Assembly (NCBI GenBank): GCA_036676355.1
Contig: JAKFDA010000093.1
Span: 7,857-71,856, forward strand
From: Nitrosomonadales bacterium
Lineage (GTDB): Bacteria > Pseudomonadota > Gammaproteobacteria > Burkholderiales > SG8-39
Direction: 5' to 3'
DNA length: 64,000 nt
Positions 5,162 through 46,958 of this stretch are shown here, one piece after another. The notes beneath the pieces were generated by a model. The model did no database searches, had not been told where the DNA came from, and saw only the letters and a program-made list of their open reading frames with translations. Every line of letters begins with the position of its first letter. The first letter of the stretch is position 1. A program made the position numbers and the translations under genes.

Positions 5162-5164
5162 CCC

Positions 5165-30461: not shown

Positions 30462-31358
30462 ATGCTGCCTCACGGTCGGCACACGCGACAATCGGCGTGG
30501 GCCGGACTGAAAGCGATGTGGCGCACGCCGATCCGGGTATTGTCCGCCTGGAACGACGATGATTCGCTGCGGCTCGGCGCCGCGGTTGCGTTCTATGCGA
30601 TTTTCTCACTTGCGCCGCTTCTGGCAATGGCCGTACTGATAGCCGGTCTGGTATTCGGCGTCGATGCCGCGCGAGACCAGATTATGGGCCAGGTCGGCGG
30701 GCTCGTCGGCGAAGGCGGCGGGCAAACGCTGCGTACCATGCTCGATAGCGCCATGGTTGAGGGCACCGAAGGAAAGCAGTGGACCACCGGCCTGGTCGGT
30801 TTCGCCACGCTCTTCATCGGAGCGACAGGCGTGTTCGTCGAATTGCGCAATGCGCTCGACGCCATCAACAAGGAGGCCGAACAGGTCGAACACGGCTTAT
30901 CGTGGATGGTGAAGGCCCGAATTGTCTCGTTTTCGCTGGTGCTCGCGGTAGGTTTCGTCGCACTTGTCTCGCTTGCGCTGAGTGCTGCCATGGCGGCGTT
31001 CGCCGCATGGTTGTCGGCCTCGGCCCCAATACTGGGCGCCCTGGCGCTGTTGCTCGATACCATCGTGTCGCTGTCGCTCATCACCGCGCTGTTCATCCTG
31101 CTGCTGCGCTTTCTGCCGTCGATCCAGCCGCGCAAAGTCTCGCTGTGGCCGGGCGCGCTGCTCGCGGCGATTCTGTTCGTTCTCGGCAAGCATCTCATCG
31201 GCCTGTACATCGGCAAGGCCGGCGTGGCGGACGCCTACGGCGCGGCCGGCTCGCTGGTCGTCATTCTCATCTGGGTGTACTACAGCACGCAGGTTCTGCT
31301 ATTGGGCGCCGAATACAACAAAATTCGCGCTGATCGCGTCGCACCCGCGGCGCCGTGA
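30462..31358 (+). CDS. YihY/BrkB family membrane protein
   Basis: SLRLGAAVAFYAIFSLAPLL, six TM segments and the C-terminal YYSTQVLLLGAEYN motif. The start is uncertain (GTG 30432, ATG 30462 or ATG 30516). Confidence 0.75.
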   Translation: MLPHGRHTRQSAWAGLKAMWRTPIRVLSAWNDDDSLRLGAAVAFYAIFSLAPLLAMAVLIAGLVFGVDAARDQIMGQVGGLVGEGGGQTLRTMLDSAMVEGTEGKQWTTGLVGFATLFIGATGVFVELRNALDAINKEAEQVEHGLSWMVKARIVSFSLVLAVGFVALVSLALSAAMAAFAAWLSASAPILGALALLLDTIVSLSLITALFILLLRFLPSIQPRKVSLWPGALLAAILFVLGKHLIGLYIGKAGVADAYGAAGSLVVILIWVYYSTQVLLLGAEYNKIRADRVAPAAP

Positions 31359-33322
31359 TGAGAAGAGCGCTCATCGGCGTGCTGATCGCCATCGCCGTAC
31401 TGGCGGCTGCCGTCGCCTGGGTCGTGCAATCGGCCTGGCTACGCGGCCTGCTCGAACGACAGCTCGAGAACATGACCGGGCGCGACGTATCCATCGGCCG
31501 CCTTGATATCGATATCCGCAGTTGTCTGCGCATCGAGGCCACGGATTTGCGCATCGCCAATCCGGACTGGGCCAGGACCGGCCAACTGATCGATGCGAGA
31601 TACCTCCGCGCCTGCCTCGCGTGGCTGCCGTTATTCATCGGACGCGCGCACGTGGAATCGCTCGGACTGGCCGATGCCGAATTGGGCCTCGAGCGCGACG
31701 GCGAGCGCGCGACCTGGGCCATCGGCAAGGAACAGAAAGAGGACAAAGGCGAAGCCCCGCCGGTGATCAACAACGTGCGTATCAGCAACACACTCATTCA
31801 CTACCGCGACACAAACCTGCAAACCGAACTCGATGTGCGCGCGGAAGGCGGCACGAGCGAAAATCCGAACATCACGCTGCACGCCGCAGGCAAAGTGCGC
31901 AACGCCGAAATCAAGGCGGTGCTCAATACGCCCGCCGCCCTGCCTTCCTCCGATGCGCCGGTCGTCGTGTCGGCCGCGTTCACAATTGGTCACACCACCG
32001 CCGCGGCGGCCGGGCGGCTAAGCTCGCTCGGCGTCGACGGCATCGAAGTTCTGCTCACCATCGCCGGCGACGATTTGTCGGATCTCAATCGCCTCGGCAT
32101 CGCGCTGCCCGAAAGCCCGCCCTATGCTTTGCGCGGGCGCCTGCGCAACGCGGATCACGTGTGGTCGCTCGAACCGTTCGAAGGGCGCGTCGGCGATAGC
32201 GATCTGTCCGGGCGCCTCGCTTACGCGGTGAAAGAGCCGCGTGCGCTGCTCACCGCCGAGGTGAATTCCAAACTGCTCGACTTGGACGATCTCGGCCCGC
32301 TGGTGGGCGCGCCCCCCAAAACGGGTAGCGGTGAAAAGGCGTCACCCAAACAGAAAAAACAGGCGGACGAAATCAAGGATTCGGGCAATGTGCTGCCGGA
32401 CAAACCGCTGGGTATGGAGGCCTGGGGCCGCCTGGATGCGGATGTACGCCTGCGCGCAGAGCAGGTCAAACGTCCCGATGCCGTACCGATCAACGCGCTT
32501 GCGGCGCATCTCAAAATCGACGACTCGACTTTGCGTCTGCAACCGTTGAACTTCGAAATCGCCGGAGGCACGGTGGCCGCCGACATCGTGCTCGAAGCCA
32601 AGGCGAAGCCGCCGCAAGCAACTGCCAATTTCGACGTGCGCAAAATCGATCTCGCCAAAATGCTGCCGGAGATCACCGCGCAGGAAGTTGCGGTCGGCAC
32701 GCTATTCGGTCGCGCCAAGTTCAAGAGCCAGGGTGTATCGATCGCTCAACTGCTGGGCCGCGCGGATGGTGATCTCACCCTCATGATCAACGGCGGTCAG
32801 ATGAGCGCCCTGCTGCTGGAGGCTGCGGGATTGGATATCGCCGAAGTGGTGAAGTTTCTCACCATCCGCGGCAAGCCCGTACCGCTTCGCTGCGCGATCG
32901 CCGATCTGCACGTCGCCGACGGCATCGCCAAATCGGAGTTGTTCGTGATCGACACGCAGGACACCGTGTTCATCGGCGAAGGCTACATCGACATGGGCAA
33001 GGAACGTCTCGATATCACCATCCATCCGCGTCCGAAGGATCAAAGTATTCTTGCGTTGCGCTCGCCGTTGCATATCGAAGGACGGTTCAAGGAGCCGAGT
33101 GCGGGTGTGAAGGCCGGTCCGCTGGCCGCCAAAGGCGCGGCGGCCGTCGCCCTGGGACTGGTCAATCCACTGCTCGCCATCATCCCCCTGATCGAAACAG
33201 GCCCCGGCGAAAACAGCGACTGCGGCGAGTTCTCGCGGCGCGTGCGTCAATCGCCGCAGAAGAATGCGCCGAGTTCCAACAAGAGGGAAAAGCAACGCGC
33301 TGCGGGAGAGGCGAAAAATTAG
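31355..33322 (+). CDS. AsmA family protein
   Basis: N-terminal anchor MMRRALIGVLIAIAVLAAAVAWV followed by a long beta-rich periplasmic body, 655 aa. ATGA overlap with yihY. Confidence 0.8.
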   Translation: MMRRALIGVLIAIAVLAAAVAWVVQSAWLRGLLERQLENMTGRDVSIGRLDIDIRSCLRIEATDLRIANPDWARTGQLIDARYLRACLAWLPLFIGRAHVESLGLADAELGLERDGERATWAIGKEQKEDKGEAPPVINNVRISNTLIHYRDTNLQTELDVRAEGGTSENPNITLHAAGKVRNAEIKAVLNTPAALPSSDAPVVVSAAFTIGHTTAAAAGRLSSLGVDGIEVLLTIAGDDLSDLNRLGIALPESPPYALRGRLRNADHVWSLEPFEGRVGDSDLSGRLAYAVKEPRALLTAEVNSKLLDLDDLGPLVGAPPKTGSGEKASPKQKKQADEIKDSGNVLPDKPLGMEAWGRLDADVRLRAEQVKRPDAVPINALAAHLKIDDSTLRLQPLNFEIAGGTVAADIVLEAKAKPPQATANFDVRKIDLAKMLPEITAQEVAVGTLFGRAKFKSQGVSIAQLLGRADGDLTLMINGGQMSALLLEAAGLDIAEVVKFLTIRGKPVPLRCAIADLHVADGIAKSELFVIDTQDTVFIGEGYIDMGKERLDITIHPRPKDQSILALRSPLHIEGRFKEPSAGVKAGPLAAKGAAAVALGLVNPLLAIIPLIETGPGENSDCGEFSRRVRQSPQKNAPSSNKREKQRAAGEAKN

Positions 33323-33339: not shown

Positions 33340-33813
33340 TCAGCGGCGCAACAGCGCGGCCGGTGGATCGGCCATGCCGGTATAACCCTGACTGTCGCCC
33401 ACCGACGTCGGTGTCGGACGCGACATCGCAGCGTGCGTCGCGGCGGCGTGTCGCGCAGAGCGTCTGGCCTGATAGATGCGCGTGGTGATCCAGCGCACCA
33501 ACCCGACCGGTCCGCCGAACTGCGCCTGCGCGAGGGACAACGCACCGGCGCCAAGCAGGCCAAGCAGGCTGGTCTTCACCGGCGCGCTATCCTCCTTGCG
33601 GCGCTTCTTGCCGCGGAATAGAAATTTGCCCGCAACGAAACCCACACCCAGTGCGCCCAGCAGAAACTTCGGCGAGGCAATCGTGGTGACGGCCGTTTCA
33701 CGCACGCTTTCCACGTAGCCCACGAAAGCCTGCTCGAGCAGCTTGCGATCGGCCGCGATCGCGCGTTCGACTGCCGCGATTTCGCCGTCGAGCGCAGAGA
33801 TGCTCAGTTTCAT
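33340..33813 (-). CDS. hypothetical membrane protein (YqjK-like position in module)
   Basis: Coiled N-terminus and two hydrophobic segments. 4-nt overlap with the upstream gene. Confidence 0.5.
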   Translation of the reverse strand: MKLSISALDGEIAAVERAIAADRKLLEQAFVGYVESVRETAVTTIASPKFLLGALGVGFVAGKFLFRGKKRRKEDSAPVKTSLLGLLGAGALSLAQAQFGGPVGLVRWITTRIYQARRSARHAAATHAAMSRPTPTSVGDSQGYTGMADPPAALLRR

Positions 33814-34271
33814 GGCTTCGCTTCGCTTTGAGGCGCTTCGCCCTTGAGTTGCCGCAGCGTCGCGGAGAAAGGCATTTCCGCAACCAGCGACCTGATGCGC
33901 CACACCAATATTCCGGCGCCGGCAAGATTGATCACCGCGGCGATCAACAACACGAGCGGCAGCGACATGTTTTCTTCAAGCAGCCAGGTCACCAGCGCAG
34001 TGATCGCCGTCAACCACGCCGTCACACCGAGCACCGCAATCACCACGCCGGTGCCGACCAACCATGCGAGCTGAATGCTCGCGCGCCGCATGTCGAGCAC
34101 GGCAAGCAACGCATAACCGTGCGCGACACGACGCGCCGTACGCCACAAAAAATCGAAGTGTCCCTCCAGCGGCTCATTGCGCGCGGCGTCGAACCGCGCG
34201 CGATATTCCGGAGAAGCTGCTTCGAGCGCCGCCTGGTGCTGTCGCGTCAGTTCGTCCGCCGAGACGGCCAT
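33810..34271 (-). CDS. YqjE-like / phage-holin-family (DUF1469-like) membrane protein
   Basis: Two long TM helices after a charged N-terminus. Starts 5 nt after the DUF883 gene. Confidence 0.5.
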   Translation of the reverse strand: MAVSADELTRQHQAALEAASPEYRARFDAARNEPLEGHFDFLWRTARRVAHGYALLAVLDMRRASIQLAWLVGTGVVIAVLGVTAWLTAITALVTWLLEENMSLPLVLLIAAVINLAGAGILVWRIRSLVAEMPFSATLRQLKGEAPQSEAKP

Positions 34272-34276: not shown

Positions 34277-34570
34277 CTAGCGACGCGAGGTCAATTTGGA
34301 CAGCAGTATGCCGGCCGCGACCGCGATACCCACCGCGGCGAGCGGATTGGCGCGCACCAGTTCGCGAGTATGTTCTACATAATGCTGACCTTGCTCGGAC
34401 CATTGTTCACCGGACGCCATCAACCGCTCTTTCGCAGCCTGTGCCTTGGAGGCAAGACGATCGACCGCCTGATGGGCGGAGGAAGACGCGCGATCCACTG
34501 TGGCCGACGCGCGCTCGCGCATCGCTTCAGTGTCGAAATTGGTGCCAGGGTTCTGTGTGCCGGATGTCAT
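34277..34570 (-). CDS. DUF883 (ElaB/YqjD family) tail-anchored stress protein
   Basis: Helical hydrophilic body with the C-terminal anchor ANPLAAVGIAVAAGILLSKLTSRR. Confidence 0.8.
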   Translation of the reverse strand: MTSGTQNPGTNFDTEAMRERASATVDRASSSAHQAVDRLASKAQAAKERLMASGEQWSEQGQHYVEHTRELVRANPLAAVGIAVAAGILLSKLTSRR

Positions 34571-34628: not shown

Positions 34629-34644
34629 GGCAACGGATATGCCC
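34629..34644 (-). promoter_or_regulatory. candidate sigma-54 promoter GGGCAT-atccg-TTGCC (DUF883 module)
   Basis: Exact spacing, 60 nt upstream of the ATG at 34570. Confidence 0.6.
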
Positions 34645-34711: not shown

Positions 34712-35026
34712 TTACTTTTGTTTATTGTCCTTGCTGCTCGGCACATCCGACGGAATACCGCGTCGTTCGGTGTCAGGCAGGCCGCGTTCGATGTCGCGGT
34801 ACGCGCGAGGAATGTCGGTCTGCGGCTGATCCGTCGCACGATCGGTGCCCCGGGCGCCACCGTCCGGCGCCGTGTCGCGTTCGTTCGGCTGGCGCAAGTC
34901 GTGGTCGGAGATTTGTCGGCGCAATCCGCCTTCCTTTTCCACATCCTGCTGATGGCGCGCCAATGCGTCGGGATTGGTGACGCCTGCCGGCGATGGGATA
35001 CGAGCCGTATCTTTCTTCCTGACCAT
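34712..35026 (-). CDS. small highly hydrophilic hypothetical protein
   Basis: MVRKKDTARIPSP..., 104 aa, rich in D/E/R/K/Q. AAGGAG RBS (35033..35038) lies 6 nt before the ATG. Confidence 0.55.
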   Translation of the reverse strand: MVRKKDTARIPSPAGVTNPDALARHQQDVEKEGGLRRQISDHDLRQPNERDTAPDGGARGTDRATDQPQTDIPRAYRDIERGLPDTERRGIPSDVPSSKDNKQK

Positions 35027-35054: not shown

Positions 35055-35070
35055 TGCACCCGGCGTGCCG
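35055..35070 (-). promoter_or_regulatory. candidate sigma-54 promoter CGGCAC-gccgg-GTGCA (hydrophilic protein)
   Basis: Exact spacing, 30 nt upstream of the ATG at 35026. The RBS lies within the predicted short leader. Confidence 0.5.
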
Positions 35071-35154: not shown

Positions 35155-35170
35155 CGGTATGCAGCTTGCA
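35155..35170 (+). promoter_or_regulatory. weak sigma-54-like box CGGTAT-gcagc-TTGCA
   Basis: Correct spacing but the -24 half is GGTAT. Sits 93 nt upstream of the ATG at 35262, and may be chance or a second promoter. Confidence 0.3.
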
Positions 35171-35261: not shown

Positions 35262-35846
35262 ATGCCTGCCAGCAAGAGCCGTCGGGATTCGTCCGACGCA
35301 ATCGCCATGCTGATCGCGGATCACCGCAAAGTGCAGAAGTTGTTCCGGGATTTCGAGAAGCTCGACCGCAGCGATGAAGAAGCCTGCGTCGAACTCGTTG
35401 AAACGGCTTGTACCGAGCTGAAGATTCACAGCATCATCGAAGAGGAAATCTTCTATCCGGCGGTGCGCTCGAAAATAAACGAGGAAGGCGAGAAGCTGCT
35501 CAACGAAGCGGCCATCGAACACGAGGTGGCCGACACGCTGATCGACAAGCTCGGAGAAATCGATCCGTCGGAGCCCGAATACGCCGCGTGTTTCGCCGTG
35601 CTGTCCGAGTATGCCCAGCATCACATCAATGAAGAGGAGAAGGAGCTCTTCCCCAAGGTCAAAAAAATGAAGGAACTCGATCTGGAAGAACTGGGCGGCG
35701 AAATGCAGGCGCGCAAGGACGAGTTGATCGCCGGAATCGAATCGGACGCCGAAATGCTACCGGACGAAGATCAGGACGAAGAAGAAAACGCCAGTCGTTC
35801 GGCGGGAAACACGGACGATGCGGAATACAAGCGCCCCGGTCGTTAG
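35262..35846 (+). CDS. hemerythrin (HHE) domain protein with acidic C-terminal tail
   Basis: AIAMLIADHRKVQKLF..ELKIHSIIEEEIFYPAV..IEHEVA..HHINEEEKELFP. Confidence 0.8.
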   Translation: MPASKSRRDSSDAIAMLIADHRKVQKLFRDFEKLDRSDEEACVELVETACTELKIHSIIEEEIFYPAVRSKINEEGEKLLNEAAIEHEVADTLIDKLGEIDPSEPEYAACFAVLSEYAQHHINEEEKELFPKVKKMKELDLEELGGEMQARKDELIAGIESDAEMLPDEDQDEEENASRSAGNTDDAEYKRPGR

Positions 35847-35973: not shown

Positions 35974-36447
35974 TTACTCAACGAAGGGCTTATCGTGCCC
36001 GGCAATGCGTCCTTTGATAATCGCGCGTAGAAACCAGGCGACACTGGCTGCAAACGCTTCGTCATACCACGCATACATGCCGCTCACGCCGACCACGATG
36101 CCATCGACGCATACGCCTCCGCCCAATACCGTGTCGCCCGATTCGAGCAAATGCGGCGCGCTTGTCGCCAAGCCATAAGTGTCGCGACCGGTACGCCAGG
36201 CCAGCTTGGCCTTGGCACGCGCGTACATGGCGTAATCGGCATCCCACCGCTCGCGGTTGAAACTCTCTTCGTAAAGAATCGCCTGCGTAAAAGCGATCGA
36301 TCCGGGCCGGGCATACGGGTCCATCACGACGACATGGGCACAACCGCTGTCGCCGAAATCCTGTGTATTCACGGCGCGCTCGAACAGCGGCCGAACGCTG
36401 ACCACTGCCTGCAGCGCAGTCTCGCGTGTAATGAGTGGTTGGAACAT
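35974..36447 (-). CDS. hypothetical protein, weak GlcG/HbpS (DUF336)-like features
   Basis: GGGVCVDGIVVGVSG resembles the DUF336 glycine-rich loop. Start moved to M135 (36447) because the candidate -12 box overlaps the upstream ATG at 36486. Confidence 0.45.
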   Translation of the reverse strand: MFQPLITRETALQAVVSVRPLFERAVNTQDFGDSGCAHVVVMDPYARPGSIAFTQAILYEESFNRERWDADYAMYARAKAKLAWRTGRDTYGLATSAPHLLESGDTVLGGGVCVDGIVVGVSGMYAWYDEAFAASVAWFLRAIIKGRIAGHDKPFVE

Positions 36448-36485: not shown

Positions 36486-36501
36486 TGCAACGCACACGCC
36501 G
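36486..36501 (-). promoter_or_regulatory. candidate sigma-54 promoter CGGCGT-gtgcg-TTGCA
   Basis: Exact spacing, 40 nt upstream of the ATG at 36447. The -24 half is GGCGT. Confidence 0.45.
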
Positions 36502-36512
36502 GGAAGCTGCAG

Positions 36513-36673
36513 AACAGCGGAGAGCGGAGAGCAAACGGCAATTAGAAGTACGACTGGATTCCCGATCGCGCGGCTGCGCCGCTTGTCGGGAATGACGATG
36601 GATGCGCCACCCCCGCGCAGGCGGGGATTCACGTCGTTCCTCTGACCGCTTTTGCTCTCCGCTCTCCGCTGTT
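36513..36673. repeat. MITE-like element, family 1, copy R3 (cleanest copy)
   Basis: Perfect 23-bp terminal inverted repeats aacagcggagagcggagagcaaa (36513..36535) / tttgctctccgctctccgctgtt (36651..36673). Internal palindromes are ggattcccgatcgcgcggctgcgccgcttgtcgggaat and ccccgcgcaggcgggg. Confidence 0.75.
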
Positions 36674-36701
36674 TTGCCGGCTCTCCGCACTCGGGCTATC
36701 G

Positions 36702-38093
36702 CTAGCCCTTCTCGTACTCTTCCTCTTCCTCGCTGAGCGGCGCGATCTTGCCGCCGTCCCGCTCGGCGTTGTATTGCGCCAGACGGTTGTACAGCGTCTT
36801 GAGACTGATGCCGAGCGTTTCCGCGGCTTTGCGTCGCACATTGCCACACTCGGCCATGGTCGCTTCGATCAACCGGCGATTGACCTCTTCCAACGTACTA
36901 CCGACACGCACGGTAAGAATGGGCTTGGGATCGGGCTCGGCGAACATGCGCGGTGCGAATTCCACATCGATAACGCGATCGGCGAGGATGTAGACGCGTT
37001 GCACGTAATTCTTCAACTCGCGCACATTGCCCGGCCAGTTATGCGCATATAGCGCGGCAATGGCCTGCGGCGAGAAGGCCTTATCCGTACCCTCCTCCTC
37101 GTTGAGAATATCGAGAAAATGCTCGGCGAGAAATTCGATGTCGGTGCCGCGCTCGCGCAAGGGCGGAAGTGTGATCGGGAAGACGTTGAGCCGGTGATAC
37201 AGATCTTCGCGCAACTTGCCGTCCTGCACGGCCTTGGCCGGATTGCGGTTGGTCGCGGCAATGACCCGCACGTCGACCGGAACCGCCGTATTCATGCCCA
37301 CGCGCATCAAGCTGCCTGTCTCCAGCACGCGCAGCAATTTCACCTGCAACTCGATCGGCATTTCGGTGATTTCGTCGAGAAACAGTGTGCCGCCGTCGGC
37401 GCGTTCGAAGAAACCTTTGTGCTGACGGTCCGCGCCGGTGAAGCTGCCCTTCTCATGGCCGAACAGTTCGCTTTCGATCAGGTTGGGCGACACTGCGCCG
37501 CAGTTGAGCGGCAGAAACGGCCGCTTCTTGCGACGACTGAGTTCGTGCACGGTTTGCGCGGCCAGTTCCTTGCCGGTACCGCTTTCGCCGATCAGCAAGA
37601 CCGTCGCCGACGTCGGCGCGACACGACCGATCTGATCGTAGAACTTCTGCATCACCGGTGAATTGCCGAGGATGTGACCGAAGCGGCCCAATCCGCGCAA
37701 TTCCTGGCGCAACTCGCCGATCTCCTCGCGCAATTCGGCAGTGCCCGGAACGCGCTTGAGAATGGCGCGCAGCCGGTCGATATCGACCGGCTTGGTGAGG
37801 TAATCGCTCGCGCCCTGTCGCAATGCGCTGACCGCGCTCTCGACCGTGGCATGACCGGTGATGAGCACGAATTCCGTACCCTCGAGCGTGTCGAGGTCCT
37901 TGATCAACTCAATGCCCTCGCCATCGGGCAACTGCAGATCCGCAAAGATCACATCGGGCCGCATCTGCGCGAGGTTGATGCGGGCACCGCGCAGGGAAGA
38001 CGCCTTGCCTACGGTGAAGCCTTCCGATTTGACGAACTCGGACAGCCACTCCAACGCCTCCGGGTCGTCGTCGACCATCAATATATGAGGCAT
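36702..38093 (-). CDS. sigma-54-dependent Fis-family response regulator (NtrC-type bEBP)
   Basis: Receiver domain ([23 protein letters not shown]), AAA+ domain with GESGTGKE and the sigma-54 contact loop GSFTGA, and a C-terminal Fis-type HTH ([16 protein letters not shown]). Confidence 0.9.
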
Positions 38094-38234
38094 CGCTATC
38101 TCCTTTAGAACAACCGCTCCGGCGTGCGCAGCCCATGCGGATGGCATCAGGGCGCGTAAGAGCCGCCCGAGCCAGGTAATTGTTACTGAATTTTCAGCCG
38201 AAATGCACCCGAAAATCCTCTCGAGCCCTGCTTA

Positions 38235-38250
38235 AGCAGCTTGTGGGCCA
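38235..38250 (-). promoter_or_regulatory. candidate sigma-54 promoter TGGCCC-acaag-CTGCT (upstream of the bEBP gene)
   Basis: Exact spacing, 143 nt upstream of the ATG at 38093. The -12 half overlaps the 12-bp palindrome ctgcttaagcag (38229..38240). Confidence 0.4.
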
Positions 38251-38320
38251 GTTTTACGCGCTCCAAGCGCGCGACAGAGGAAAAAAATGCAAGGCCCGGG
38301 TCCCGGCGCGGTGCGTTGAA

Positions 38321-39178
38321 TCAGCCGTTCACGATCGTGCCGCCATTGGGATGCAACACCTGGCCGGTCATATAAGCCGAGTCGCCGGAGGCGAGAAAGA
38401 TGAAGCTCGGGGCGACCTCGTCGGGTTGGCCCGCATGGCCGAGCGGGACGTCGGCGCCGAATTCGGCAACCTTGTCCGGCGGAAACGTTGAAGGAATGAG
38501 TGGCGTCCAGATCGGTCCGGGCGCGACCGCGTTGACGCGAATACCGCGCTCGGCGACGGCCAGGGCAAGTGAACGCGTGTACGCCACGATCGCACCTTTG
38601 GTGGCGGAGTAGTCAAGCAGCTTGGGATTGCCCTTGTACGCGGTGACCGACGCGGTGTTGATAATGCGCGCGCCGGGGCGCAGATACGGCAGCGCCGCGT
38701 TCACCAGATAGAACATGGCGAAGATGTTGGTCGCGAAGGTGCGCTGCAACTGAATGGCGGCGATATCTTCGGGTCGCTCTTGCGGATGCTGTTCGGCCGC
38801 GTTGTTCACCAGCACGTCAAGTCGGCCAAGCTCACTCACTGCCTTTCCCACCGCAAATCGGCAGTGTTCCTCGTCCGCGATATCGCAAGGGATGAGCAGA
38901 CAACGCCGCCCTTCGCTTTCGATGGCCGCTCGCGTCGCATCGGCATCTTCATGCTCTTCCAGATAGACGATCGCGATATCTGCGCCTTCCTTGGCAAAAC
39001 CGACCGCCACGGCGCGGCCGATCCCGCTGTCCGCGCCGGTGATCAGCGCGACCTGCCCATCGAGTTTGCCGCTGCCGATGTAGCCCTTCATAAAGGACTC
39101 CGTCCGCGGCTGCATCGGCGCTTCGCGTCCGGGCTGTCGATCCTGCTGCTGTGGCGGACGCTGTTGAGTCGGGCTCAT
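38321..39178 (-). CDS. SDR family oxidoreductase, YghA/YhxC general-stress type
   Basis: Gln/Pro-rich leader followed by LDGQVALITGADSGIGRAVA, NNAAEQ and YSATKGA motifs. Confidence 0.85.
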   Translation of the reverse strand: MSPTQQRPPQQQDRQPGREAPMQPRTESFMKGYIGSGKLDGQVALITGADSGIGRAVAVGFAKEGADIAIVYLEEHEDADATRAAIESEGRRCLLIPCDIADEEHCRFAVGKAVSELGRLDVLVNNAAEQHPQERPEDIAAIQLQRTFATNIFAMFYLVNAALPYLRPGARIINTASVTAYKGNPKLLDYSATKGAIVAYTRSLALAVAERGIRVNAVAPGPIWTPLIPSTFPPDKVAEFGADVPLGHAGQPDEVAPSFIFLASGDSAYMTGQVLHPNGGTIVNG

Positions 39179-39210
39179 ACGATACCTTTCATTGAACGCA
39201 TCGAAGTGTG

Positions 39211-39226
39211 AGCAATGCCTATGCCG
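39211..39226 (-). promoter_or_regulatory. candidate sigma-54 promoter CGGCAT-aggca-TTGCT (YghA-like SDR)
   Basis: Exact spacing, 34 nt upstream of the ATG at 39178. Confidence 0.6.
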
Positions 39227-39258
39227 CGAGCCATCTTTTGAATGTGAATTCGCCACAT

Positions 39259-39300
39259 CACTGTCGTTGTCTTTGAGCGCGTCAGCGTTCGACGACAGTG
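39259..39300. promoter_or_regulatory. 9-bp perfect inverted repeat CACTGTCGT-N24-ACGACAGTG between divergent sigma-54 boxes (possible activator site)
   Basis: Located 33 nt from box 39211..39226 and 44 nt from box 39344..39359. A second small palindrome, tgtg-N7-caca, lies just upstream (about 39243..39257). Confidence 0.3.
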
Positions 39301-39343
39301 CGTAAACACTGCTTCCATGTCGAATCGTTGAAGCGATATACCG

Positions 39344-39359
39344 CGGCATGCGGCTTGCT
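39344..39359 (+). promoter_or_regulatory. candidate sigma-54 promoter CGGCAT-gcggc-TTGCT (glycan operon)
   Basis: Exact spacing, 42 nt upstream of the ATG at 39400. Confidence 0.6.
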
Positions 39360-39399
39360 GCCTTTCCGGCAGAACAACCTCATCCCGTTTCGATTCCAA

Positions 39400-40677
39400 A
39401 TGAAAATCGCGCTCATCAGCGAGCACGCTTCACCCCTCGCGACGCTAGGCGGTGTCGATAGCGGCGGCCAGAATGTCTACGTCGCACATCTCTCCCGGCA
39501 ACTCGCGCGCAGAGGACACAAGGTCGACGTATTTACCCGATGCGACGATGAGGCGTTGCCCGGCATCGTGCCCTTCGATCGCAGCGTGCGCGTGATACAC
39601 ATTCCCGCAGGACCGCGCCGACACATCGCCAAAGAGCAGCTGCTGCCATACATGCAGGAGTTTTCTCTGCGCATGGCGAATTACTGTTCGGTGCCGACAC
39701 GCCGCTATGACATCGTGCACGCCAATTTCTTCATGTCCGGACTGGTCGGCGCGCGTCTGCAGGAAGAACTCGGCATTCCGCTCGTCATCACTTTTCATGC
39801 GCTCGGCAAGGTGCGCAGGCTGCATCAGCGAGAAGCCGATCGTTTTCCCGCCGCACGCATGGCGATCGAGGAACAGCTCGTACGCCGCGCCGATCGCATC
39901 GTCGCGGAGTGTCCGCAGGATCGCGATGATCTGATCCATCTTTACGACGCCGCGCCCGATAAGATCGATGTGGTCGGCTGCGGCGTGGATATCGACGAGT
40001 TAAGCTCGGTGAGCCGTAGCGCGGCACGTTCGACGCTCGGTCTCGACGACGACGATTTCGTGGTTCTGCAATTGGGGCGGCTCGTTCCGCGCAAGGGCAT
40101 CGACAACGTGATTCGCGCGATCGGCTGTCTTCAGCGCGATCACGGCATTCGCGCGCGACTGCTCGTCGTCGGCGGCGAATCGATCGAACCCGACCCGATA
40201 ATCACGCCCGAGATCGGCCGATTGGCCGCAGTCGCCGACGCCGAAAATGTGCGCGAGCTCGTGACCTTCGTCGGCCAGCGCGCACGGCCCGAACTGCGCA
40301 ACTACTACTCGGCGTCGGACGTATTCATCACGACGCCATGGTACGAACCCTTCGGCATTACGCCGCTTGAATCCATGGCGTGCGGCACACCGGTGATCGG
40401 CGCCGCGGTCGGCGGCATCAAGCACACGGTGATCGACGAGGTCACCGGCTATCTGGTTCCGCCTAAAGACCCCGCCGCAGTGGCGGAACGCCTCGCGCGC
40501 TTCCACCGCAATGCGGAACTCGCGCGCGCATTCGGGCGTGCGGGCATCCGGCATGTGCGCGCCAATTACACATGGGAGCAGATCGCCCGGCAGATGACGG
40601 AAGTCTATGCCTCGACGCTGCGACCGCCGCGCGCCCTCATACATTCTTCTTCCGACGAAAGCGCCGCGACTGTATGA
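39400..40677 (+). CDS. glycosyltransferase family 4 (SPS/MshA-like N-terminal motif)
   Basis: MKIALISEHASPLATLGGVDSGGQNVYVAHLSRQL, with the C-terminal E-x7-E region FITTPWYEPFGITPLESMACGTPVIG. Confidence 0.8.
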   Translation: MKIALISEHASPLATLGGVDSGGQNVYVAHLSRQLARRGHKVDVFTRCDDEALPGIVPFDRSVRVIHIPAGPRRHIAKEQLLPYMQEFSLRMANYCSVPTRRYDIVHANFFMSGLVGARLQEELGIPLVITFHALGKVRRLHQREADRFPAARMAIEEQLVRRADRIVAECPQDRDDLIHLYDAAPDKIDVVGCGVDIDELSSVSRSAARSTLGLDDDDFVVLQLGRLVPRKGIDNVIRAIGCLQRDHGIRARLLVVGGESIEPDPIITPEIGRLAAVADAENVRELVTFVGQRARPELRNYYSASDVFITTPWYEPFGITPLESMACGTPVIGAAVGGIKHTVIDEVTGYLVPPKDPAAVAERLARFHRNAELARAFGRAGIRHVRANYTWEQIARQMTEVYASTLRPPRALIHSSSDESAATV

Positions 40678-41414
40678 AACACTCACTCAAGGAAAAACTT
40701 GCCGTCGTTACCGGCGGCGCACGCGGTCTCGGTGCGGCGTTATGCGAACGACTTGCCGCGGAAGGTTGCAAAGTCGTGGTCGTCGACATGAAGCTCGAAC
40801 TGGCGCAGGCGACCTGTGCCCGTATTCACGACAATGCGCGCGACGACTCCGTCATGGCGTGGGCATATTCGACCGACATCGGCGACGCTGCCCAGGTCGA
40901 AGCAATGGTGCGCGACATCGGCGAACGATACGGTCCCATCGATATCGTGATCAACAACGCCGGCATCGATATCACGTTGCCGATCGATGAATTGACGGTC
41001 GACGAATTCGATCGCGTCGTGCAGACCAATCTGCGCGGACCTTTCCTGCTCTCCAAATACGCGGCGGTGCAAATGCGCGAACGCGGCCGCGGCCACATCG
41101 TCAACATCGCGTCGACCGCATCGAAGCGCGCATGGGCCAACGCTTCCGCGTATCACGCCAGCAAATGGGGCGTGCTCGGCCTGTCACATGCGCTGCATGC
41201 GGAACTGCGCCCGCACGGCATCAAGGTAACCGCTGTCGTGGCTGGCGGCATGCGCACACCTTTCCTGCTCGACCGCTTTCCCGACATCGACCGCAACACA
41301 TTGCAGGAGCCGGCGGATGTTGCCGAAGCGATCGTCGGCATCCTCGGCATCGGCGGATCGACCGTCATCCCGGAACTGATGATCCTGCCGATGCGTGAAA
41401 CCTCCTGGCCATGA
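40674..41414 (+). CDS. SDR family oxidoreductase
   Basis: LAVVTGGARGLGAA, NNAG and YHASKWG motifs. ATGA overlap with the upstream gene. Confidence 0.8.
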   Translation: MKHSLKEKLAVVTGGARGLGAALCERLAAEGCKVVVVDMKLELAQATCARIHDNARDDSVMAWAYSTDIGDAAQVEAMVRDIGERYGPIDIVINNAGIDITLPIDELTVDEFDRVVQTNLRGPFLLSKYAAVQMRERGRGHIVNIASTASKRAWANASAYHASKWGVLGLSHALHAELRPHGIKVTAVVAGGMRTPFLLDRFPDIDRNTLQEPADVAEAIVGILGIGGSTVIPELMILPMRETSWP

Positions 41415-42004
41415 GTACGCAACCGAAGAAGCGACACGCAGTGACTAAAGCGGCCGTATTCATCGACAAGGACGGTACGTTGATACCGGACGTACCGTAT
41501 AACGTCGATCCGGCGAAAATTCGTCTGCGCCCCAAGGCCGGTATGGCGCTGCGGCGCCTGCAGAATGCCGGCTACGAACTGGTGCTGATTAGCAACCAGG
41601 CCGGCGTCGCGCTCGGCCGCTTCGACGAAAGCGCGCTGGACCCGGTCTGGTCGAAATTGCGTGCGCAACTTGCGGGCGAGCGCGTCGACCTGTCGGCGAT
41701 CTATTACTGCCCGCATCATCCCGCCGGCGAAGTACCGCAATACGCCGCCGAGTGCGAATGCCGCAAACCGCGGCCTGGCCTGCTGCAGCGCGCCGCGCAC
41801 GAACGCCATATCGACCTTCAGCGCTCCTGGATGCTGGGCGACATTCTCGATGATGTGGAAGCGGGACGGCGTGCAGGTTGTCGCACCGTGCTGCTCGATG
41901 TCGGCTCCGAGACCGAGTGGCGCGAATCCGCGTTGCGCACGCCCGATTTCATGGCGCGCGATCTCGATGCCGCGTCGCATTACATCCTCGCGAGCACGCC
42001 ATGA
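41411..42004 (+). CDS. HAD-IIIA phosphatase, GmhB (heptose 1,7-bisphosphate phosphatase)-like
   Basis: AVFIDKDGTL, SNQAGVA, the Zn-finger-like CPHHP...CECRKP motif, and GDILDDVEAG. ATGA overlaps on both sides. Confidence 0.7.
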   Translation: MSTQPKKRHAVTKAAVFIDKDGTLIPDVPYNVDPAKIRLRPKAGMALRRLQNAGYELVLISNQAGVALGRFDESALDPVWSKLRAQLAGERVDLSAIYYCPHHPAGEVPQYAAECECRKPRPGLLQRAAHERHIDLQRSWMLGDILDDVEAGRRAGCRTVLLDVGSETEWRESALRTPDFMARDLDAASHYILASTP

Positions 42005-43170
42005 TGCGGAGCCACTCGCTGCCGAGCGCGGTTCACGCCGATACCGCATTGTGGGCGCGCGCAAAGCGGGTGCTGTGCGTGCGACTCGATGCGCTCGGCG
42101 ATGTGCTGATGACCACGCCGGCGATGCACGCCCTCAAGCACGCCAAGCCCGAACGCGAAATCACGCTGCTGACCTCGCCGAGCGGTGCGGCTGCCGCAAA
42201 TCATCTGGCCGATGTTGATCATGTGCTGATCCACGATGCGCCGTGGATGAAACACGAGCGCGCACCGGCCGTCGCGGCGATGCAGGTTCTCATCGAAACC
42301 CTGCGCGCCGCGCATTTCGACGCGGCAGTCATCTTTACCGTCTACAGTCAGAGTGCACTGCCCGCCGCCATGCTGTGCTGGATGGCCGGCATCCCGCTTC
42401 GGCTTGCACATGCGCGCGAGAATCCCTATCACCTTTTGACCGATTGGGAACCGGAGCGCGAGCCGACGGTTCCGGTGCGCCATGAAGTGCAGCGCCAGCT
42501 CGACCTGGTGGCCAGCATCGGCGCACATACGATCGATACGCGCATGCGGTTCTCGCTTTCGGCGCACGACCAGCAGAGCGCGATGCGAACGCTCGCCGCG
42601 GCGGGGGTGCGCATCGATCGTGAATGGATCGTCGTACACCCGGGCGCCAGTGCCTCATCGCGCCGCTATCCAACCGAACATTACGCCCTGGCCCTGCAAC
42701 GCCTCGCATTGCACGACAACCTTCAGATGCTGATCACCGGCGCCGCCGGGGAAGGCGCGCTCGTGCAGGCGTTGGCTTCGCGCGTGCCCGGCGCGGCGTC
42801 ACTGGCCGGCGCATTGAGTTTGGGCGAGTTGGCGTGGGTGATTTCGCGCGCCACGCTACTCATCTCGAACAATACCGCGCCGGTACATCTTGCCGCGGCG
42901 CTCGGCACGCCCGTGGTCGATCTGTATGCGCTGACCAATCCGCAGCATACGCCGTGGCAGATAACCAGCCGCGTGCTCTCGCACGATGTGCCGTGCCGCT
43001 ACTGCTATCGCAGCGTGTGTGTCGAGGGTCATCACGCGTGTTTGCGCGGCGTACCGCCCGACGCGGTTGCGCAGGCGGCGATCGAATTGCTGCGGGAGAC
43101 GCGCCAACCGTCAACCCGTGAAGCGCATTCCTTCGCACAAGCAACGGAGTCATCTTTGTGTACACGCTAG
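42001..43170 (+). CDS. glycosyltransferase family 9 (heptosyltransferase-like)
   Basis: VLCVRLDALGDVLMTTPAMHAL and the C-terminal LISNNTAPVHLAAALGTPVVDLY motif. Confidence 0.8.
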   Translation: MMRSHSLPSAVHADTALWARAKRVLCVRLDALGDVLMTTPAMHALKHAKPEREITLLTSPSGAAAANHLADVDHVLIHDAPWMKHERAPAVAAMQVLIETLRAAHFDAAVIFTVYSQSALPAAMLCWMAGIPLRLAHARENPYHLLTDWEPEREPTVPVRHEVQRQLDLVASIGAHTIDTRMRFSLSAHDQQSAMRTLAAAGVRIDREWIVVHPGASASSRRYPTEHYALALQRLALHDNLQMLITGAAGEGALVQALASRVPGAASLAGALSLGELAWVISRATLLISNNTAPVHLAAALGTPVVDLYALTNPQHTPWQITSRVLSHDVPCRYCYRSVCVEGHHACLRGVPPDAVAQAAIELLRETRQPSTREAHSFAQATESSLCTR

Positions 43171-44930
43171 GGCTCAACGCCGCCTTTCACGACAGCGCCG
43201 CCTGTCTGGTGCACGACGGCATGCTGATCGCCGCCGCTGAGGAAGAGCGCTTCAGTCGCATCAAACACGCCAAACGACCGGTGCCGTTCAGTGTGTGGGA
43301 ATTACCCTACAACGCGATCGATTACTGTCTGCGTGAAGCGAACATCACGTTGGCCGATGTCGACCACGTCGCCTACTCGCTCGACCCCGCGCTGCTGCCG
43401 AATCGGCCCGAGCGCGACGCGCCCATCGTGCTGCCGCAACATCCGCCCGCCGCGCGCAGCGTCGACCGCAAGCCCTGGGATGATCTGTTTTATCTGTATG
43501 TCGTCAACGCGCCGCGCCAATTGAGCGGCGGTGCCCCGCATCATCTGCGCGGGCGCATCAACCCCGGCAAGCCGCTGCGTTACGAATGGCATTTCGTCGA
43601 ACACCATCTCGCTCATGAGTCGAGCGCGTTTCTCGCATCCCCTTACGAATCGTGCGCCGTGCTCACGCTCGACGGACGCGGCGAGCAGGCGACCACGACT
43701 TACGGCGTGTGGCGCGACGGCGAGTTGCGCCGGCTGAAGCAGATCGATGTGCCGCACTCGCTCGGTCTGCTGTACGAAGACGTGACGCGCTATCTGGGCT
43801 TCCTGCACTCGTCCGACGAGTACAAGGTCATGGCGCTCGCATCCTACGGCACGCCGCGCCATCTCGATGAGTTCCGCGACATCGTGCAGGTCGACGACGA
43901 TGGCGGCTATCGCATCAACGGCCCCGACCTGGAAAATCGCTTCGGTTCCGCGCGCGAGCACAGCGCTCCGTTCGATGCACGGCACTTCGATATCGCCGCA
44001 TCGCTGCAGAAGGTGCTGGAGCAAAGCGCGCTCAGGCTCGCGGCATGGCTGCGCGAGGCGAGCGGCGAAAAACATCTGGCCATGGCGGGCGGCGTCGCGC
44101 TCAACTGCGTGATGAACGCGCGCATTCGCGACAGCGGTCTGTACGACGACGTGTGGGTCCAGCCGGCCTCGGGCGACGCCGGCACCGCGCTGGGCGCCGC
44201 GCTATGGATCGACTATCGCCGTCGCGGCGAACGAAGCTGGCGGATGGATCACGCGTACTACGGTCCCGGCTACGGCGACGACGAGATCGAGCAACTGCTC
44301 GAATGGAGCAAGATCCCCTATCGGCGACTCGACAACGTGGCGGAAGAAACCGCCAAACTGCTTGCGCAGAATTACATCATCGGCTGGTTTCAGGGACGCA
44401 TGGAATTCGGTCCGCGCGCGCTCGGTGCGCGCTCGATCCTCGCCTCGCCGATCGACCCCGACATGAAAGGTCGCCTCAACGAACTGAAGGATCGCGAGGA
44501 TTTCCGCCCGGTCGCGCCTGTGGTGCTGGAAGAAAAACTCGACGAATGGTTCGTGCGCAAGGACGGCATCACGGGCAAGGCACCGTTCATGCTGTTCGTG
44601 TACGGCGTGCGAGAGGATATCGCCACACGCATTCCGGCCGCGGTGCACGTAGACCGCACCGCACGCGTACAGACCGTCGATGCGCACGCCAATCCGCGCT
44701 ATCGCGAACTGCTCGCGGCATTCGAGCGCCGCACCGGTGTGCCGGTGCTGGTCAATACCTCATTCAACAGCCGCGGGCAGCCGATCGTGTGTTCGCCGCG
44801 CGATGCCATCGAAGCGTTCTACAGCACGCCGCTCGATGCGCTGGTGATCGGCTCCTTCATGGTCACCAAGAATGTCACTGCGCAGGGTGACCCATTGCTC
44901 GCCGCGTCGGTGGCCGAGGCCATCGTATGA
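43158..44930 (+). CDS. carbamoyltransferase (NodU/CmcH family)
   Basis: GTG start. (M)YTLGLNAAFHDSAACLV..AAEEERFSRIKH, with the C-terminal VNTSFNSRGQPIV. Confidence 0.85.
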   Translation: MYTLGLNAAFHDSAACLVHDGMLIAAAEEERFSRIKHAKRPVPFSVWELPYNAIDYCLREANITLADVDHVAYSLDPALLPNRPERDAPIVLPQHPPAARSVDRKPWDDLFYLYVVNAPRQLSGGAPHHLRGRINPGKPLRYEWHFVEHHLAHESSAFLASPYESCAVLTLDGRGEQATTTYGVWRDGELRRLKQIDVPHSLGLLYEDVTRYLGFLHSSDEYKVMALASYGTPRHLDEFRDIVQVDDDGGYRINGPDLENRFGSAREHSAPFDARHFDIAASLQKVLEQSALRLAAWLREASGEKHLAMAGGVALNCVMNARIRDSGLYDDVWVQPASGDAGTALGAALWIDYRRRGERSWRMDHAYYGPGYGDDEIEQLLEWSKIPYRRLDNVAEETAKLLAQNYIIGWFQGRMEFGPRALGARSILASPIDPDMKGRLNELKDREDFRPVAPVVLEEKLDEWFVRKDGITGKAPFMLFVYGVREDIATRIPAAVHVDRTARVQTVDAHANPRYRELLAAFERRTGVPVLVNTSFNSRGQPIVCSPRDAIEAFYSTPLDALVIGSFMVTKNVTAQGDPLLAASVAEAIV

Positions 44931-45928
44931 ACACATCACTGCAACAGGCGGGCGCGCCGCTGGTGTCCGTGGTCGTCCCGACGTGCGGAAGACCGACGCT
45001 GCTGCGACGCTGCCTGCTCGCCCTGCGACGTCAGCGTATGCCGGGCAACAGCTACGAGATCATCGTTGCCGACGACGGTCACTCGGACGCGACGCAGCGC
45101 CTCGCGGAACAACTCGATGGTGCGGATCCCGAAGGGCCGCGCGTGCGCTACGTCCGCTCGCCTGGTTGCAAAGGCGGCCCCGCCGGTGCGCGCAACGCCG
45201 GCTGGCGCGCGGCGCATGCGCCGGTGATCGCCTTCACCGACGACGATACCGTGCCCGCACGCGACTGGCTGGACGAAGGAATGCACGCGCTGCAACCGGG
45301 CGTTGCCGCCGCCACCGGCCGTACGCGCGTGCCGCTGCCGAGTGCCCCGACCGATTGGCAGCGCAACACCGCAGGACTCGAACGCGGCGAGTTCATCACC
45401 GCCAACTGTTTCGTACGGCGCGAGGTGCTGGAGGAACTGGACGGTTTCGACGAACGCTATCGTCGTCCGTGGCGCGAGGATTCCGACCTGCATTTCGCCA
45501 TGCTGGAGCGAGGCATGGCGATCGCGCATGCGCCGCGCGCGCTGGTGCTTCATCCCGCACGCGAGGCTCCCTGGGGAGTCAGCGCGAAGATTCAGCAAAA
45601 CGTTTACTTCGACGCGCTGCTGTTCAGGAAACATCCGCTGTTATACCGCGCGCGCATTTCTCCCGGCCCGCCGCTACGCTACTATTTCGCCGTCTCCGCG
45701 CTCGGCCTCGCCGCGATCGGCCTGCTCCGCGGCGCCCCGCTGCTGGCGCTCGGCGGGGGAACCGCCTGGCTCGCATGGACGGTCGGTTTCGCCGCCTATC
45801 GATTGCGCCACACTTCGCACGATCCGCGCCATATCGCCGAAATGCTTTACACCTCGGCGGTCATTCCGCCGCTAGCGGTGTATTGGCGCATCGCCGGCGC
45901 GCTGCGTTTCAAGGTCGCCTTCGCATGA
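44927..45928 (+). CDS. glycosyltransferase family 2 with C-terminal TM segments
   Basis: VSVVVPTCGRP, a DDG..D motif and FTDDD (DxD). Confidence 0.8.
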   Translation: MNTSLQQAGAPLVSVVVPTCGRPTLLRRCLLALRRQRMPGNSYEIIVADDGHSDATQRLAEQLDGADPEGPRVRYVRSPGCKGGPAGARNAGWRAAHAPVIAFTDDDTVPARDWLDEGMHALQPGVAAATGRTRVPLPSAPTDWQRNTAGLERGEFITANCFVRREVLEELDGFDERYRRPWREDSDLHFAMLERGMAIAHAPRALVLHPAREAPWGVSAKIQQNVYFDALLFRKHPLLYRARISPGPPLRYYFAVSALGLAAIGLLRGAPLLALGGGTAWLAWTVGFAAYRLRHTSHDPRHIAEMLYTSAVIPPLAVYWRIAGALRFKVAFA

Positions 45929-46956: not shown

Positions 46957-46958
46957 GC

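Follow-up and report, generated by a model that had tools for sequence, protein, structure and literature searches.

A lone sigma-54 activator of an unnamed family, its predicted GTAA-N3-TTAC site and a conserved island of stress-gene promoters in a Nitrosomonadales bacterium

We wanted to define what is controlled by the single sigma-54 activator encoded in a 64,000-nucleotide stretch of DNA from a Nitrosomonadales bacterium (GenBank assembly GCA_036676355.1, contig JAKFDA010000093.1, positions 7,857 to 71,856; this whole stretch is called the window hereafter). In this window, the gene for a bacterial enhancer-binding protein (bEBP) lies next to a short-chain dehydrogenase/reductase (SDR) gene and close to an 11-gene glycan operon that opens with a GT4 glycosyltransferase gene. 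The SDR gene and the operon are preceded by two divergent sigma-54 boxes, named here the SDR box and the GT4 box, and a third box precedes the bEBP gene itself. From this arrangement, a sequence-only reading had suggested that the bEBP could act on the divergent pair and that a positive feedback loop would be possible. To look at this, the window was compared with 168 loci around homologues of the bEBP (L numbers; all identity figures are those of the bEBP protein). The best overall explanation, which we hold to be probable, is that of a phosphorylation-controlled activator that would raise its own expression and drive the sigma-54 promoters of a conserved stress island. Judged from these comparisons, the bEBP belongs to an unnamed, abundant family that is central in a conserved stress-protection island.

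In architecture, the protein does not depart from the group I bEBPs, those of the response-regulator type. Pfam detects Response_reg (residues 4-112, E 1e-24), Sigma54_activat (141-307, E 2e-70), AAA_lid, and HTH_8 (400-441, E 1e-12). The phospho-acceptor set of the receiver is complete (acidic pocket DDD at 8-10, the Asp in ADLQLPD, the T in LITGH, and the K in LTKP), and the AAA+ domain carries Walker A (GESGTGKE), Walker B, and the sigma-54 contact loop GSFTGA, all read from the sequence; of the 120 closest homologues, 119 have this loop. Among solved structures, NtrC4 of Aquifex is the best match (PDB 4l4u, E 7e-90). Gene starts of the window were assigned by inspection, with start codons, ribosome-binding sites, and homology as guides; for the bEBP gene this gave the ATG at 38093 after the ribosome-binding site aaaggag, kept in 12 relatives, the start at 38147 in the open reading frame (ORF) list being too early. 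A single tblastn match confirms that the window encodes no other sigma-54 activator, as the sequence-only reading had said. Its description as an orphan stands in part: the genes on either side, that of the SDR upstream and an HbpS/GlcG-like gene downstream, do not encode kinases, but a hybrid kinase is encoded in the same conserved syntenic block. The protein misses every named NCBIfam equivalog cut-off (in bits, AtoC 389 vs 714, ZraR 339 vs 760, PrsR 360 vs 503, LuxO 346 vs 800, and GlrR 305 vs 763), that of NtrC included (TIGR01818, 386.5 vs 558.6 bits; PRK10923, 329 vs 620), and neither NtrB nor a glnA context was found among the window genes. Its closest homologues, taken as the best 120 (72-98% identical), bear generic names only and come from soil metagenomes or metagenome-assembled genomes labelled Burkholderiales, Betaproteobacteria, or Pseudomonadota. 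The recognition helix is essentially invariant across the family, and a word-filtered search returned at least 8,000 proteins below E 1e-50, many of which probably belong to other bEBP families. The literature searched gave no description of this activator family or of the GTAA-N3-TTAC motif presented below.

A candidate binding site for the family emerged from the homologue loci. In their 1.63 Mb, 49 exact copies of the palindrome GTAA-N3-TTAC occur against about 6.5 expected (our estimate from base composition), often in tandem with a spacing of 20-21 nt (L017, L027, L047, L086, and L101). Where the bEBP is less than 64% identical, 49 of 355 strong sigma-54 boxes have the palindrome 20-210 nt upstream, compared with 1 in random control windows; the counts are 10 of 56 (control 1) at 73-79% identity and 2 of 43 (control 1) at 80% or more, the group of the window. 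Since it stands upstream of many sigma-54 boxes in the more distant relatives, GTAA-N3-TTAC is likely the site that the family binds. The only exact copy in the 64 kb lies in the leader of the bEBP gene, and no intergenic copy with one mismatch was found; with a matrix to which all exact copies contributed, itself among them, its score is 16.9, against 11.2 for the runner-up in the window. A degenerate second site stands beside it (Table 1), at a position where relatives have GGTAAG/GTAAC-type half sites. In an alignment of 12 lineages (74-100% identity) that ran from the third box down to the start codon of the bEBP gene, the only invariant non-coding elements were the GG and GC of the box and GTAA-N3-TTAC. 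These blocks are kept whatever lies upstream, be it the SDR gene (window, L084, L001, and L085), Ku (L090), or a small divergent ORF (L086 and L087); L091 and L092 share the layout of L090, their upstream gene being without annotation. The canonical order is seen in Ralstonia and in L101 (68% identity, with the SDR gene upstream), where tandem palindromes precede the box by 61-84 nt and the gene follows. Because the leader keeps a sigma-54 box together with a tandem palindrome, and because the geometry is canonical in L101 and Ralstonia, positive autoregulation of the bEBP gene is a reasonable reading, and binding of the bEBP to its own leader would be the best-supported interaction of the locus. 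Another palindrome, CTGCTTAAGCAG (38229..38240), had been noted over the third box by the sequence-only reading. Both are present and the box is conserved, but CTGCTTAAGCAG is not kept in L084, L001, or L085 and was rejected as an operator; the conserved GTAA-N3-TTAC stands 50 nt further on.

The bEBP gene lies within a series of predicted sigma-54 promoters. In the window, 13 matches to a sigma-54 matrix reach 12 bits or more, compared with 3.8 in shuffled sequences, and about half of them directly precede a gene and are correctly oriented for it. Related loci hold 2.2-3.8 such matches per 10 kb, where about 0.6 are expected. The stretch from 30.3 to 39.4 kb has at least eight conserved sigma-54 promoters (Table 1), including those of the SDR, GT4, and third boxes and five others confirmed by orthologous boxes in L081, L084, and L085, although orthologous promoters of close relatives are not independent observations. 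The box before BrkB has orthologues in L081 (16710), L084 (10533), and L085 (16914), and the unit headed by GGGCATATCCGTTGCC continues after DUF883 with a holin-X/YqjE-like gene (Phage_holin_3_6) and a 157-aa ORF (33340..34271). The back-to-back pair on which the earlier proposal was built is real but not special: besides 39211/39344, boxes are paired at 35055/35155 (those of the 104-aa ORF and hemerythrin, with an 84-nt gap) and at 56017/56168. The box GGGCATGCTGGCTGCA heads six co-directional, closely spaced genes, namely DUF2383, DUF883-like, DUF4142, TopoIB, a membrane protein, and a PAS kinase, so that this kinase is indeed the last gene of a unit with a sigma-54 box. Other high-scoring boxes (57760, 1768, 18827, 45957, and 46523) lie within or antisense to genes and were treated as chance matches. 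The window encodes a YghA/YdaD-like SDR, DUF883 proteins (ElaB/YqjD family), a PRC-barrel protein, DUF4142, a ferritin-like DUF2383 protein, hemerythrin, MscS, a GH15/trehalase-like protein, TopoIB, AhpC, and an alternative cytochrome oxidase; Ku, LigD, cytochrome bd, and Csp are found in relatives, and OtsA in Caballeronia. We take such a gene content to be typical of RpoS or EcfG stress regulons, and the conserved region reads as a stress or dormancy island.

Three PAS kinases are encoded in the window, as the sequence-only reading had counted: the hybrids 26997..30356 and 60372..61979, and the soluble kinase 51401..52501. Through the last one, the gene that closes the GGGCATGCTGGCTGCA unit, a feedback loop had been suggested. 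The hybrid kinase 26997..30356 lies within the syntenic block conserved in L081, L084, L085, and L087. At bEBP homologues, kinases are encoded immediately after the bEBP gene (L063 and L075), convergent to it (L017, L019, L021, and L026), or 2-3 kb downstream (L004, L005, and L007), and all of them best match this hybrid, receiver included; none matches 51401..52501. Moreover, in L090 the unit of DUF4142, TopoIB, and the membrane protein ends in Ku, directly upstream of the bEBP gene. The kinase 51401..52501 was thus rejected as the cognate kinase, and the feedback loop through it is without comparative support. The hybrid 26997..30356 is the best candidate for the partner of the bEBP. Its probable start is a TTG at 30356 (ribosome-binding site gaggag), 18 nt from the divergent BrkB box (30374-30389), and its promoter must therefore overlap the BrkB leader. 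The second hybrid PAS-HisKA-HATPase-REC kinase (60372-63160 region) adjoins DUF2334 and GT4 genes, and rpoN2 of the Ralstonia megaplasmid (L168) likewise has DUF2334 and a hybrid kinase at its side.

The mechanism that we consider probable as a whole would run as follows. A PAS sensor kinase, for which synteny points to the hybrid 26997..30356, would phosphorylate the receiver Asp. The activator would then assemble on the tandem GTAA-N3-TTAC of its own leader (38156..38186), as the conservation of this element suggests, and would open the sigma-54 holoenzyme at the third box, by which its own level would rise. It would also turn on the other sigma-54 promoters of the island, whose boxes are conserved and whose dependence on the activator is suggested by their position: those of the SDR gene (maybe reading on into the bEBP gene), the 11-gene glycan operon, the HbpS-like gene, hemerythrin, the 104-aa ORF, the DUF883 and holin-X/YqjE-like operon, and BrkB-AsmA. 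For the SDR and GT4 promoters, the activator would act from its leader site by looping of the DNA, or from weak sites in the spacer between the two boxes. Several points weigh against this mechanism. Everything rests on sequence conservation and gene position, the source organism being uncultured, and the sigma-54 matrix is our own approximation of the published consensus. The hybrid kinase 26997..30356 has no Hpt domain in Pfam and no sigma-54 box of its own; without an Hpt domain, direct phosphotransfer to the bEBP is an assumption. No rpoN gene was found in the 64-kb window, nor in L081-L085 over a distance of 10 kb. In L081-83, the third box is degenerate and falls below the threshold of the matrix. 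Counted from the 5' edge of this box, the palindrome of the window's clade stands 65-78 nt downstream, which is about +45 relative to the predicted start, and such a position would also suit repression or a roadblock. Finally, GTAA-N3-TTAC was not found, even with one mismatch, near the SDR and GT4 boxes or the other island promoters of the window, and the same holds for the whole subclade at 80% identity or more.

The position of the palindrome and the weak box of L081-83 would both fit a leader that serves mainly for negative autoregulation, or one that is a relic. In such a case, the palindrome at about +45 would be an operator or roadblock or would overlap an unrecognised sigma-70 promoter, and the third box would descend from a bidirectional promoter that once served a divergent small gene. 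Indeed, in the 73-78% clade (L004 2462-2482, L086 9861-9881, and L094-L100) the box of the bEBP gene is quasi-palindromic, TGGTACGCAAGTTGCGTGCC, with a sigma-54 box on both strands, and in L086 and L087 the box on the other strand is 36 nt from a 66-67-aa gene that it faces. However, the GG and GC of the box are also invariant where there is no divergent gene (window, L084, L001, L085, and L089-92), and L101 and Ralstonia have the activating order. Moreover, no sigma-70-type promoter was found in 36500..39500, and NtrC-type sites can activate from downstream positions. We therefore regard a mainly negative or vestigial role of the leader as unlikely, and self-activation remains the preferred reading.

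The lack of family palindromes near the island promoters bears on another alternative, to which we give the same low credence. The two divergent boxes and most other boxes of the island would be genuine but would be activated by a bEBP encoded outside the window, the adjacent bEBP controlling itself and perhaps a few genes, and its adjacency would reflect co-inheritance of the island. Consistent with this, the sole recognisable family site in 64 kb is that of the bEBP's own leader, and the GT4 promoter has recurrent elements of another kind. In L081, L084, and L085, a perfect palindrome TTCAAGC-N-GCTTGAA stands about 130-150 nt upstream of the GT4 box (L081 around 9715-9730, L084 around 2425-2445, and L085 around 8845-8860) and a proximal CTTGAAG stands 7-14 nt before the -24 GG of this box; the former may be the site of another regulator. 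In the window, TTCAAGC-N-GCTTGAA is degenerate (around 39233-39250), with only its right half left, and it was rejected as the site of an activator there. The window has instead an inverted repeat, CACTGTCGT-N24-ACGACAGTG, midway between the two boxes. Against an activator from elsewhere, no other bEBP is encoded in the window, nor was one found among the Pfam-matched called genes within 10 kb on either side in L081-L087. The boxes of SDR, DUF883, BrkB, and hemerythrin also recur beside the same bEBP family in distant lineages, often with the palindrome. Likewise, a motif shared by the upstream regions of the island promoters was sought in the window's subclade: the 6-mers TTGAAG and AAGCGG gave weak signals that are mostly confined to the GT4 promoter and non-significant after correction (for TTGAAG-type words, p around 1e-4 before correction for about 2000 words, the orthologues not being independent). 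We thus retain the adjacent bEBP as the probable activator of the island. For the SDR and GT4 pair itself, direct control by the bEBP is suggested by position and, because no copy of the family palindrome lies near these two boxes, is only plausible. The leader site is 1.03-1.16 kb from the pair in the window; in L081, which lacks the SDR gene, it precedes the GT4 box by about 290 nt. For this pair, three routes are left: a DNA loop that starts at the leader site, binding to weak sites (for example GTAAACACTGC), or control by another regulator through either the inverted repeat specific to the window or the elements TTCAAGC-N-GCTTGAA and CTTGAAG. The two-mismatch candidate GTAAACACTGC resembles GTAAAAACTGC, found upstream of rpoN2 in Caballeronia loci, and is not kept in L081, L084, or L085; as a bEBP site it is speculative.

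The two divergent boxes are very likely genuine sigma-54 promoters, because the pair is exact, each box is close to its gene, and both are conserved amid diverged flanks. As first reported, they match CGGCAT-N5-TTGCT exactly, which is found twice in the window where 0.06 copies are expected (1 of 100 shuffles reached two), and they precede a YghA-like SDR gene and the glycan operon. They are separated by a spacer of 117 nt. Like the third box, they have GG and GC exactly 10 nt apart in a TGGCAC-N5-TTGCW-like context. The GGCA...TTGC before GT4 is the only invariant non-coding block in seven lineages, at 36-53 nt before the GT4 ATG, and it is kept even in L003, L086, and L087 (74-78%), where GT4 sits 2-9 kb from the bEBP gene. 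The SDR box has orthologues at the same position in L001, L084, L021, L026, and L066 and weaker ones in L085 and L101; loci of Paucimonas, Noviherbaspirillum humi, and Mycoavidus are among those with such a box before the SDR orthologue. That both boxes are chance matches or sigma-70 promoter fragments is very improbable: they begin with C where the consensus has T, and TGGCAC-N5-TTGCW with two mismatches occurs in this GC-rich window about as often as expected by chance (42 vs 34), but the exact pair, the placement 32 and 40 nt before the ATGs, and the absence of a sigma-70-like promoter in the region searched speak for promoters of the sigma-54 type.

The arrangement of genes around the pair varies. 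L084 (93%) and L085 (85%) have the SDR gene, while in L081-83 (89%) it is missing and the bEBP gene is directly divergent from the same glycan operon. One correction to the sequence-only reading concerns the SDR and bEBP genes, which do adjoin: they are co-directional and no clear terminator was called between them, a GC-rich stretch before a T-run forming no proper stem, so that the SDR promoter could also read into the bEBP gene. The glycan operon runs in the order GT4, SDR, GmhB-like HAD, GT9, carbamoyltransferase, GT2, radical SAM/SPASM, GT9, GT1, a gene without assigned function, and epimerase. A 694-aa ORF listed at 44872-46956 is not one gene: GT2 (44927..45928) is read in a different frame, and the start of the radical SAM/SPASM gene is near 45925, which agrees with L081-L085. 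A high-scoring sigma-54-like box, TGGCCCGCGATTTGCT (47989-48004, plus strand), falls inside the second GT9 gene at its 3' end, with 87 nt left to GT1. It has a similar counterpart at the same place in L081 (1044-1059) and may be an internal promoter or simply conserved coding sequence. No known RNA family was found in 26-57 kb.

Table 1. Coordinates of the promoters, candidate sites and genes discussed, in window positions (L-locus positions are those within the locus named)
Feature	Position	Strand	Remarks
Hybrid PAS-HisKA-HATPase-REC kinase gene	26997..30356	-	Pfam; best candidate for the cognate kinase, by synteny
Sigma-54 box CGGCATGTCGTTTGCA	30374..30389	+	before BrkB/YihY (30462..31358) and AsmA (31355..33322)
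Sigma-54 box GGGCATATCCGTTGCC	34629..34644	-	before DUF883 (34277..34570); orthologous boxes in L081, L084, L085, L004
Sigma-54 box CGGCACGCCGGGTGCA	35055..35070	-	before 104-aa ORF (34712..35026, -); orthologues in L081, L084, L085
Sigma-54 box CGGTATGCAGCTTGCA	35155..35170	+	before hemerythrin (35262..35846, +); orthologous boxes L081 12668, L084 6551
Sigma-54 box CGGCGTGTGCGTTGCA	36486..36501	-	before HbpS/GlcG-like gene (35974..36447, -); orthologous boxes L081 11504, L084 5380
bEBP gene	36702..38093	-	REC-AAA+ (GSFTGA)-HTH_8 response regulator, 463 aa; Pfam and sequence
Degenerate second site GTAAGAGCCGC	38156..38166		20 nt centre-to-centre from the upstream activating sequence UAS1; read from sequence
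Palindrome GTAATTGTTAC (GTAA-N3-TTAC)	38176..38186		likely high-affinity bEBP site (UAS1); invariant in 12 lineages
Third sigma-54-type box TGGCCCACAAGCTGCT	38235..38250	-	141 nt before bEBP ATG
YghA/YdaD-like SDR gene	38321..39178	-	Pfam adh_short_C2; NCBIfam NF005214, 414 bits vs cut-off 413
SDR box, sigma-54 box CGGCATAGGCATTGCT	39211..39226	-	32 nt before SDR ATG (39178)
Inverted repeat CACTGTCGT-N24-ACGACAGTG	39259..39300		midway between SDR and GT4 boxes; not kept in this form in L081, L084, L085
Weak two-mismatch candidate bEBP site GTAAACACTGC	39302..39312		37 nt from GT4 box, 81 nt from SDR box
GT4 box, sigma-54 box CGGCATGCGGCTTGCT	39344..39359	+	40 nt before GT4 ATG (39400)
11-gene glycan operon	39400..51366	+	Pfam and NCBIfam; same gene order in L081-L085
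Soluble PAS-HisKA-HATPase kinase gene	51401..52501	-	feedback partner in the sequence-only reading; no synteny support
Sigma-54 box GGGCATGCTGGCTGCA	56017..56032	-	heads unit 55968 down to 51401; box before DUF2383 also in L087 (3255)
Sigma-54-like box GGGCACATCGCTTGCC	56168..56183	+	before PRC-barrel gene (56305..56844); 135-nt gap to box 56017..56032

The family is physically linked to a second rpoN gene in many of its loci. An rpoN paralogue lies in the fetched flanks of 43 of the 168 homologue loci (25 of 66 among loci of at least 15 kb), including L006, L007, and L087 (73-77% identity), L014-L016, L020, and L022; in L087, the sigma-54 gene (100-1545) is 8.5 kb from the bEBP gene. Nearly all of these linked rpoN genes are preceded by a strong sigma-54 box, at 13-100 nt from the start, and in many cases an element resembling GTAA-N3-TTAC stands further upstream. 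On the megaplasmid of R. solanacearum OE1-1, the homologue (62-63% identical) is 2.7 kb from the sigma-54 gene (L168 6764-8266). The genes there run in the order hybrid kinase, two hypotheticals, DUF2334, sigma-54, a hypothetical, and a receiver-less bEBP, followed on the divergent side by the homologue, DUF1328, a hypothetical gene, and YihY/BrkB; the hybrid kinase, DUF2334, and YihY/BrkB are families that also occur in the window. Compared with the window, the Burkholderiaceae loci have this additional receiver-less bEBP, divergent from the homologue (L014-L066, for instance L036 6999-8330; L168 9313-10473). About 120 N-terminal residues of it have no Pfam match and are followed by AAA+ and HTH_8, and between it and the homologue lie a sigma-54 box, the family palindrome, and DUF883 genes, with OtsA downstream in Caballeronia. 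The window shares with the rpoN2-linked module the same recognition helix and the combination of GTAA-N3-TTAC and sigma-54 box at the bEBP gene. In R. solanacearum, rpoN2 (RSp1671) has a sigma-54 promoter, depends on rpoN1, and showed no phenotype, its role being called 'enigmatic' (Ray et al. 2015, PMC4371752); the strong boxes before the linked rpoN paralogues fit this published promoter and its dependence on rpoN1. In B. pseudomallei, rpoN2 has been tied to katE expression (Diep et al. 2015, PMC4745423). The activators neighbouring rpoN2 are uncharacterised in both papers.

Among known systems, those of the NtrC/NtrB type (NtrC, DctD, ZraR, AtoC, and NtrC4) share with the window the REC-AAA+-Fis HTH architecture with its phospho-acceptor residues and sigma-54 contact loop. 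The same is true of the -24/-12 promoters and of tandem palindromic sites spaced by two helical turns. The window bEBP differs by its family-wide GSFTGA loop, the lack of a kinase in its operon, its distinct motif GTAA-N3-TTAC, and its predicted targets, which are stress and envelope genes and not nitrogen, C4-dicarboxylate, zinc, or acetoacetate genes. As with PrsR/PrsK of the PEP-CTERM system (TIGR02915), in which the bEBP controls exopolysaccharide loci, an NtrC-family regulator stands here beside a big glycosyltransferase operon with a sigma-54 promoter, and PrsR is the third-best NCBIfam match of the bEBP, below its cut-off. Unlike in that system, no PEP-CTERM or exosortase match was found among the Pfam-scanned ORFs of the window, and the proposed regulon extends far beyond glycan genes. 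The likeness to RpoS in Gammaproteobacteria and to EcfG-NepR-PhyR in Alphaproteobacteria is a functional analogy only, based on similar gene content, since the system proposed here uses enhancer-dependent sigma-54 with an ATPase activator and not an alternative sigma factor of the sigma-70 family. A further comparison is BP2158 of Bordetella pertussis, a sigma-54 activator with an apparent sigma-54 promoter of its own, for which the authors suggested self-activation and noted an unknown regulon (Sim et al. 2024 preprint, PMC11722255); a Bordetella locus (L079, 58% identity) is among our homologues, any link to BP2158 being tentative.

Some boxes and genes away from the bEBP gene were also observed. 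Two sigma-54-like boxes on the minus strand, 13835-13850 and 26846-26861, share the identical 15-mer GGCATGGCGCTTGCG. The first precedes a CtaG-like gene for cytochrome oxidase assembly by 39 nt; the second is 36 nt before a small secreted-protein ORF that follows the hybrid kinase, and was not seen in L081 or L084. Another one, CGGCACGCTATCTGCA (12115-12130, minus strand), stands about 35-40 nt before an ATG of an ORF with an ASRT domain (Anabaena sensory rhodopsin transducer; 11703..12371), and the next gene downstream encodes a VKOR-SPW fusion. At the edge of the stress-gene region (4583-6529), genes for a nicotinamidase-like isochorismatase and a nicotinate phosphoribosyltransferase (NAD salvage) lie beside that of an Old Yellow Enzyme-type oxidoreductase.

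The mechanism proposed here, with a two-component bEBP, sigma-54 promoters, and self-activation, is textbook, and the pair of boxes is therefore not surprising in itself. The value of the finding is comparative: an abundant family gains a predicted binding motif, a predicted self-activation module, and a candidate stress-gene regulon, and its physical link to the second rpoN of Ralstonia and Burkholderia offers a lead on the role of rpoN2, a matter of specialist interest. A broader reading, which we put forward tentatively and hold to be less probable than the mechanism itself, is that in Burkholderiales and other soil Proteobacteria a general stress or dormancy regulon depends on sigma-54 and has this family as its master activator, in the role that RpoS or EcfG has elsewhere, and that the family recognises GTAA-N3-TTAC, activates itself, and switches on rpoN2 where present, in a feed-forward manner. 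If this were true, genes for DNA-end repair, compatible solutes, and glycans would belong to the regulon, together with those of an SDR, hemerythrin, and envelope and ribosome-associated stress proteins.

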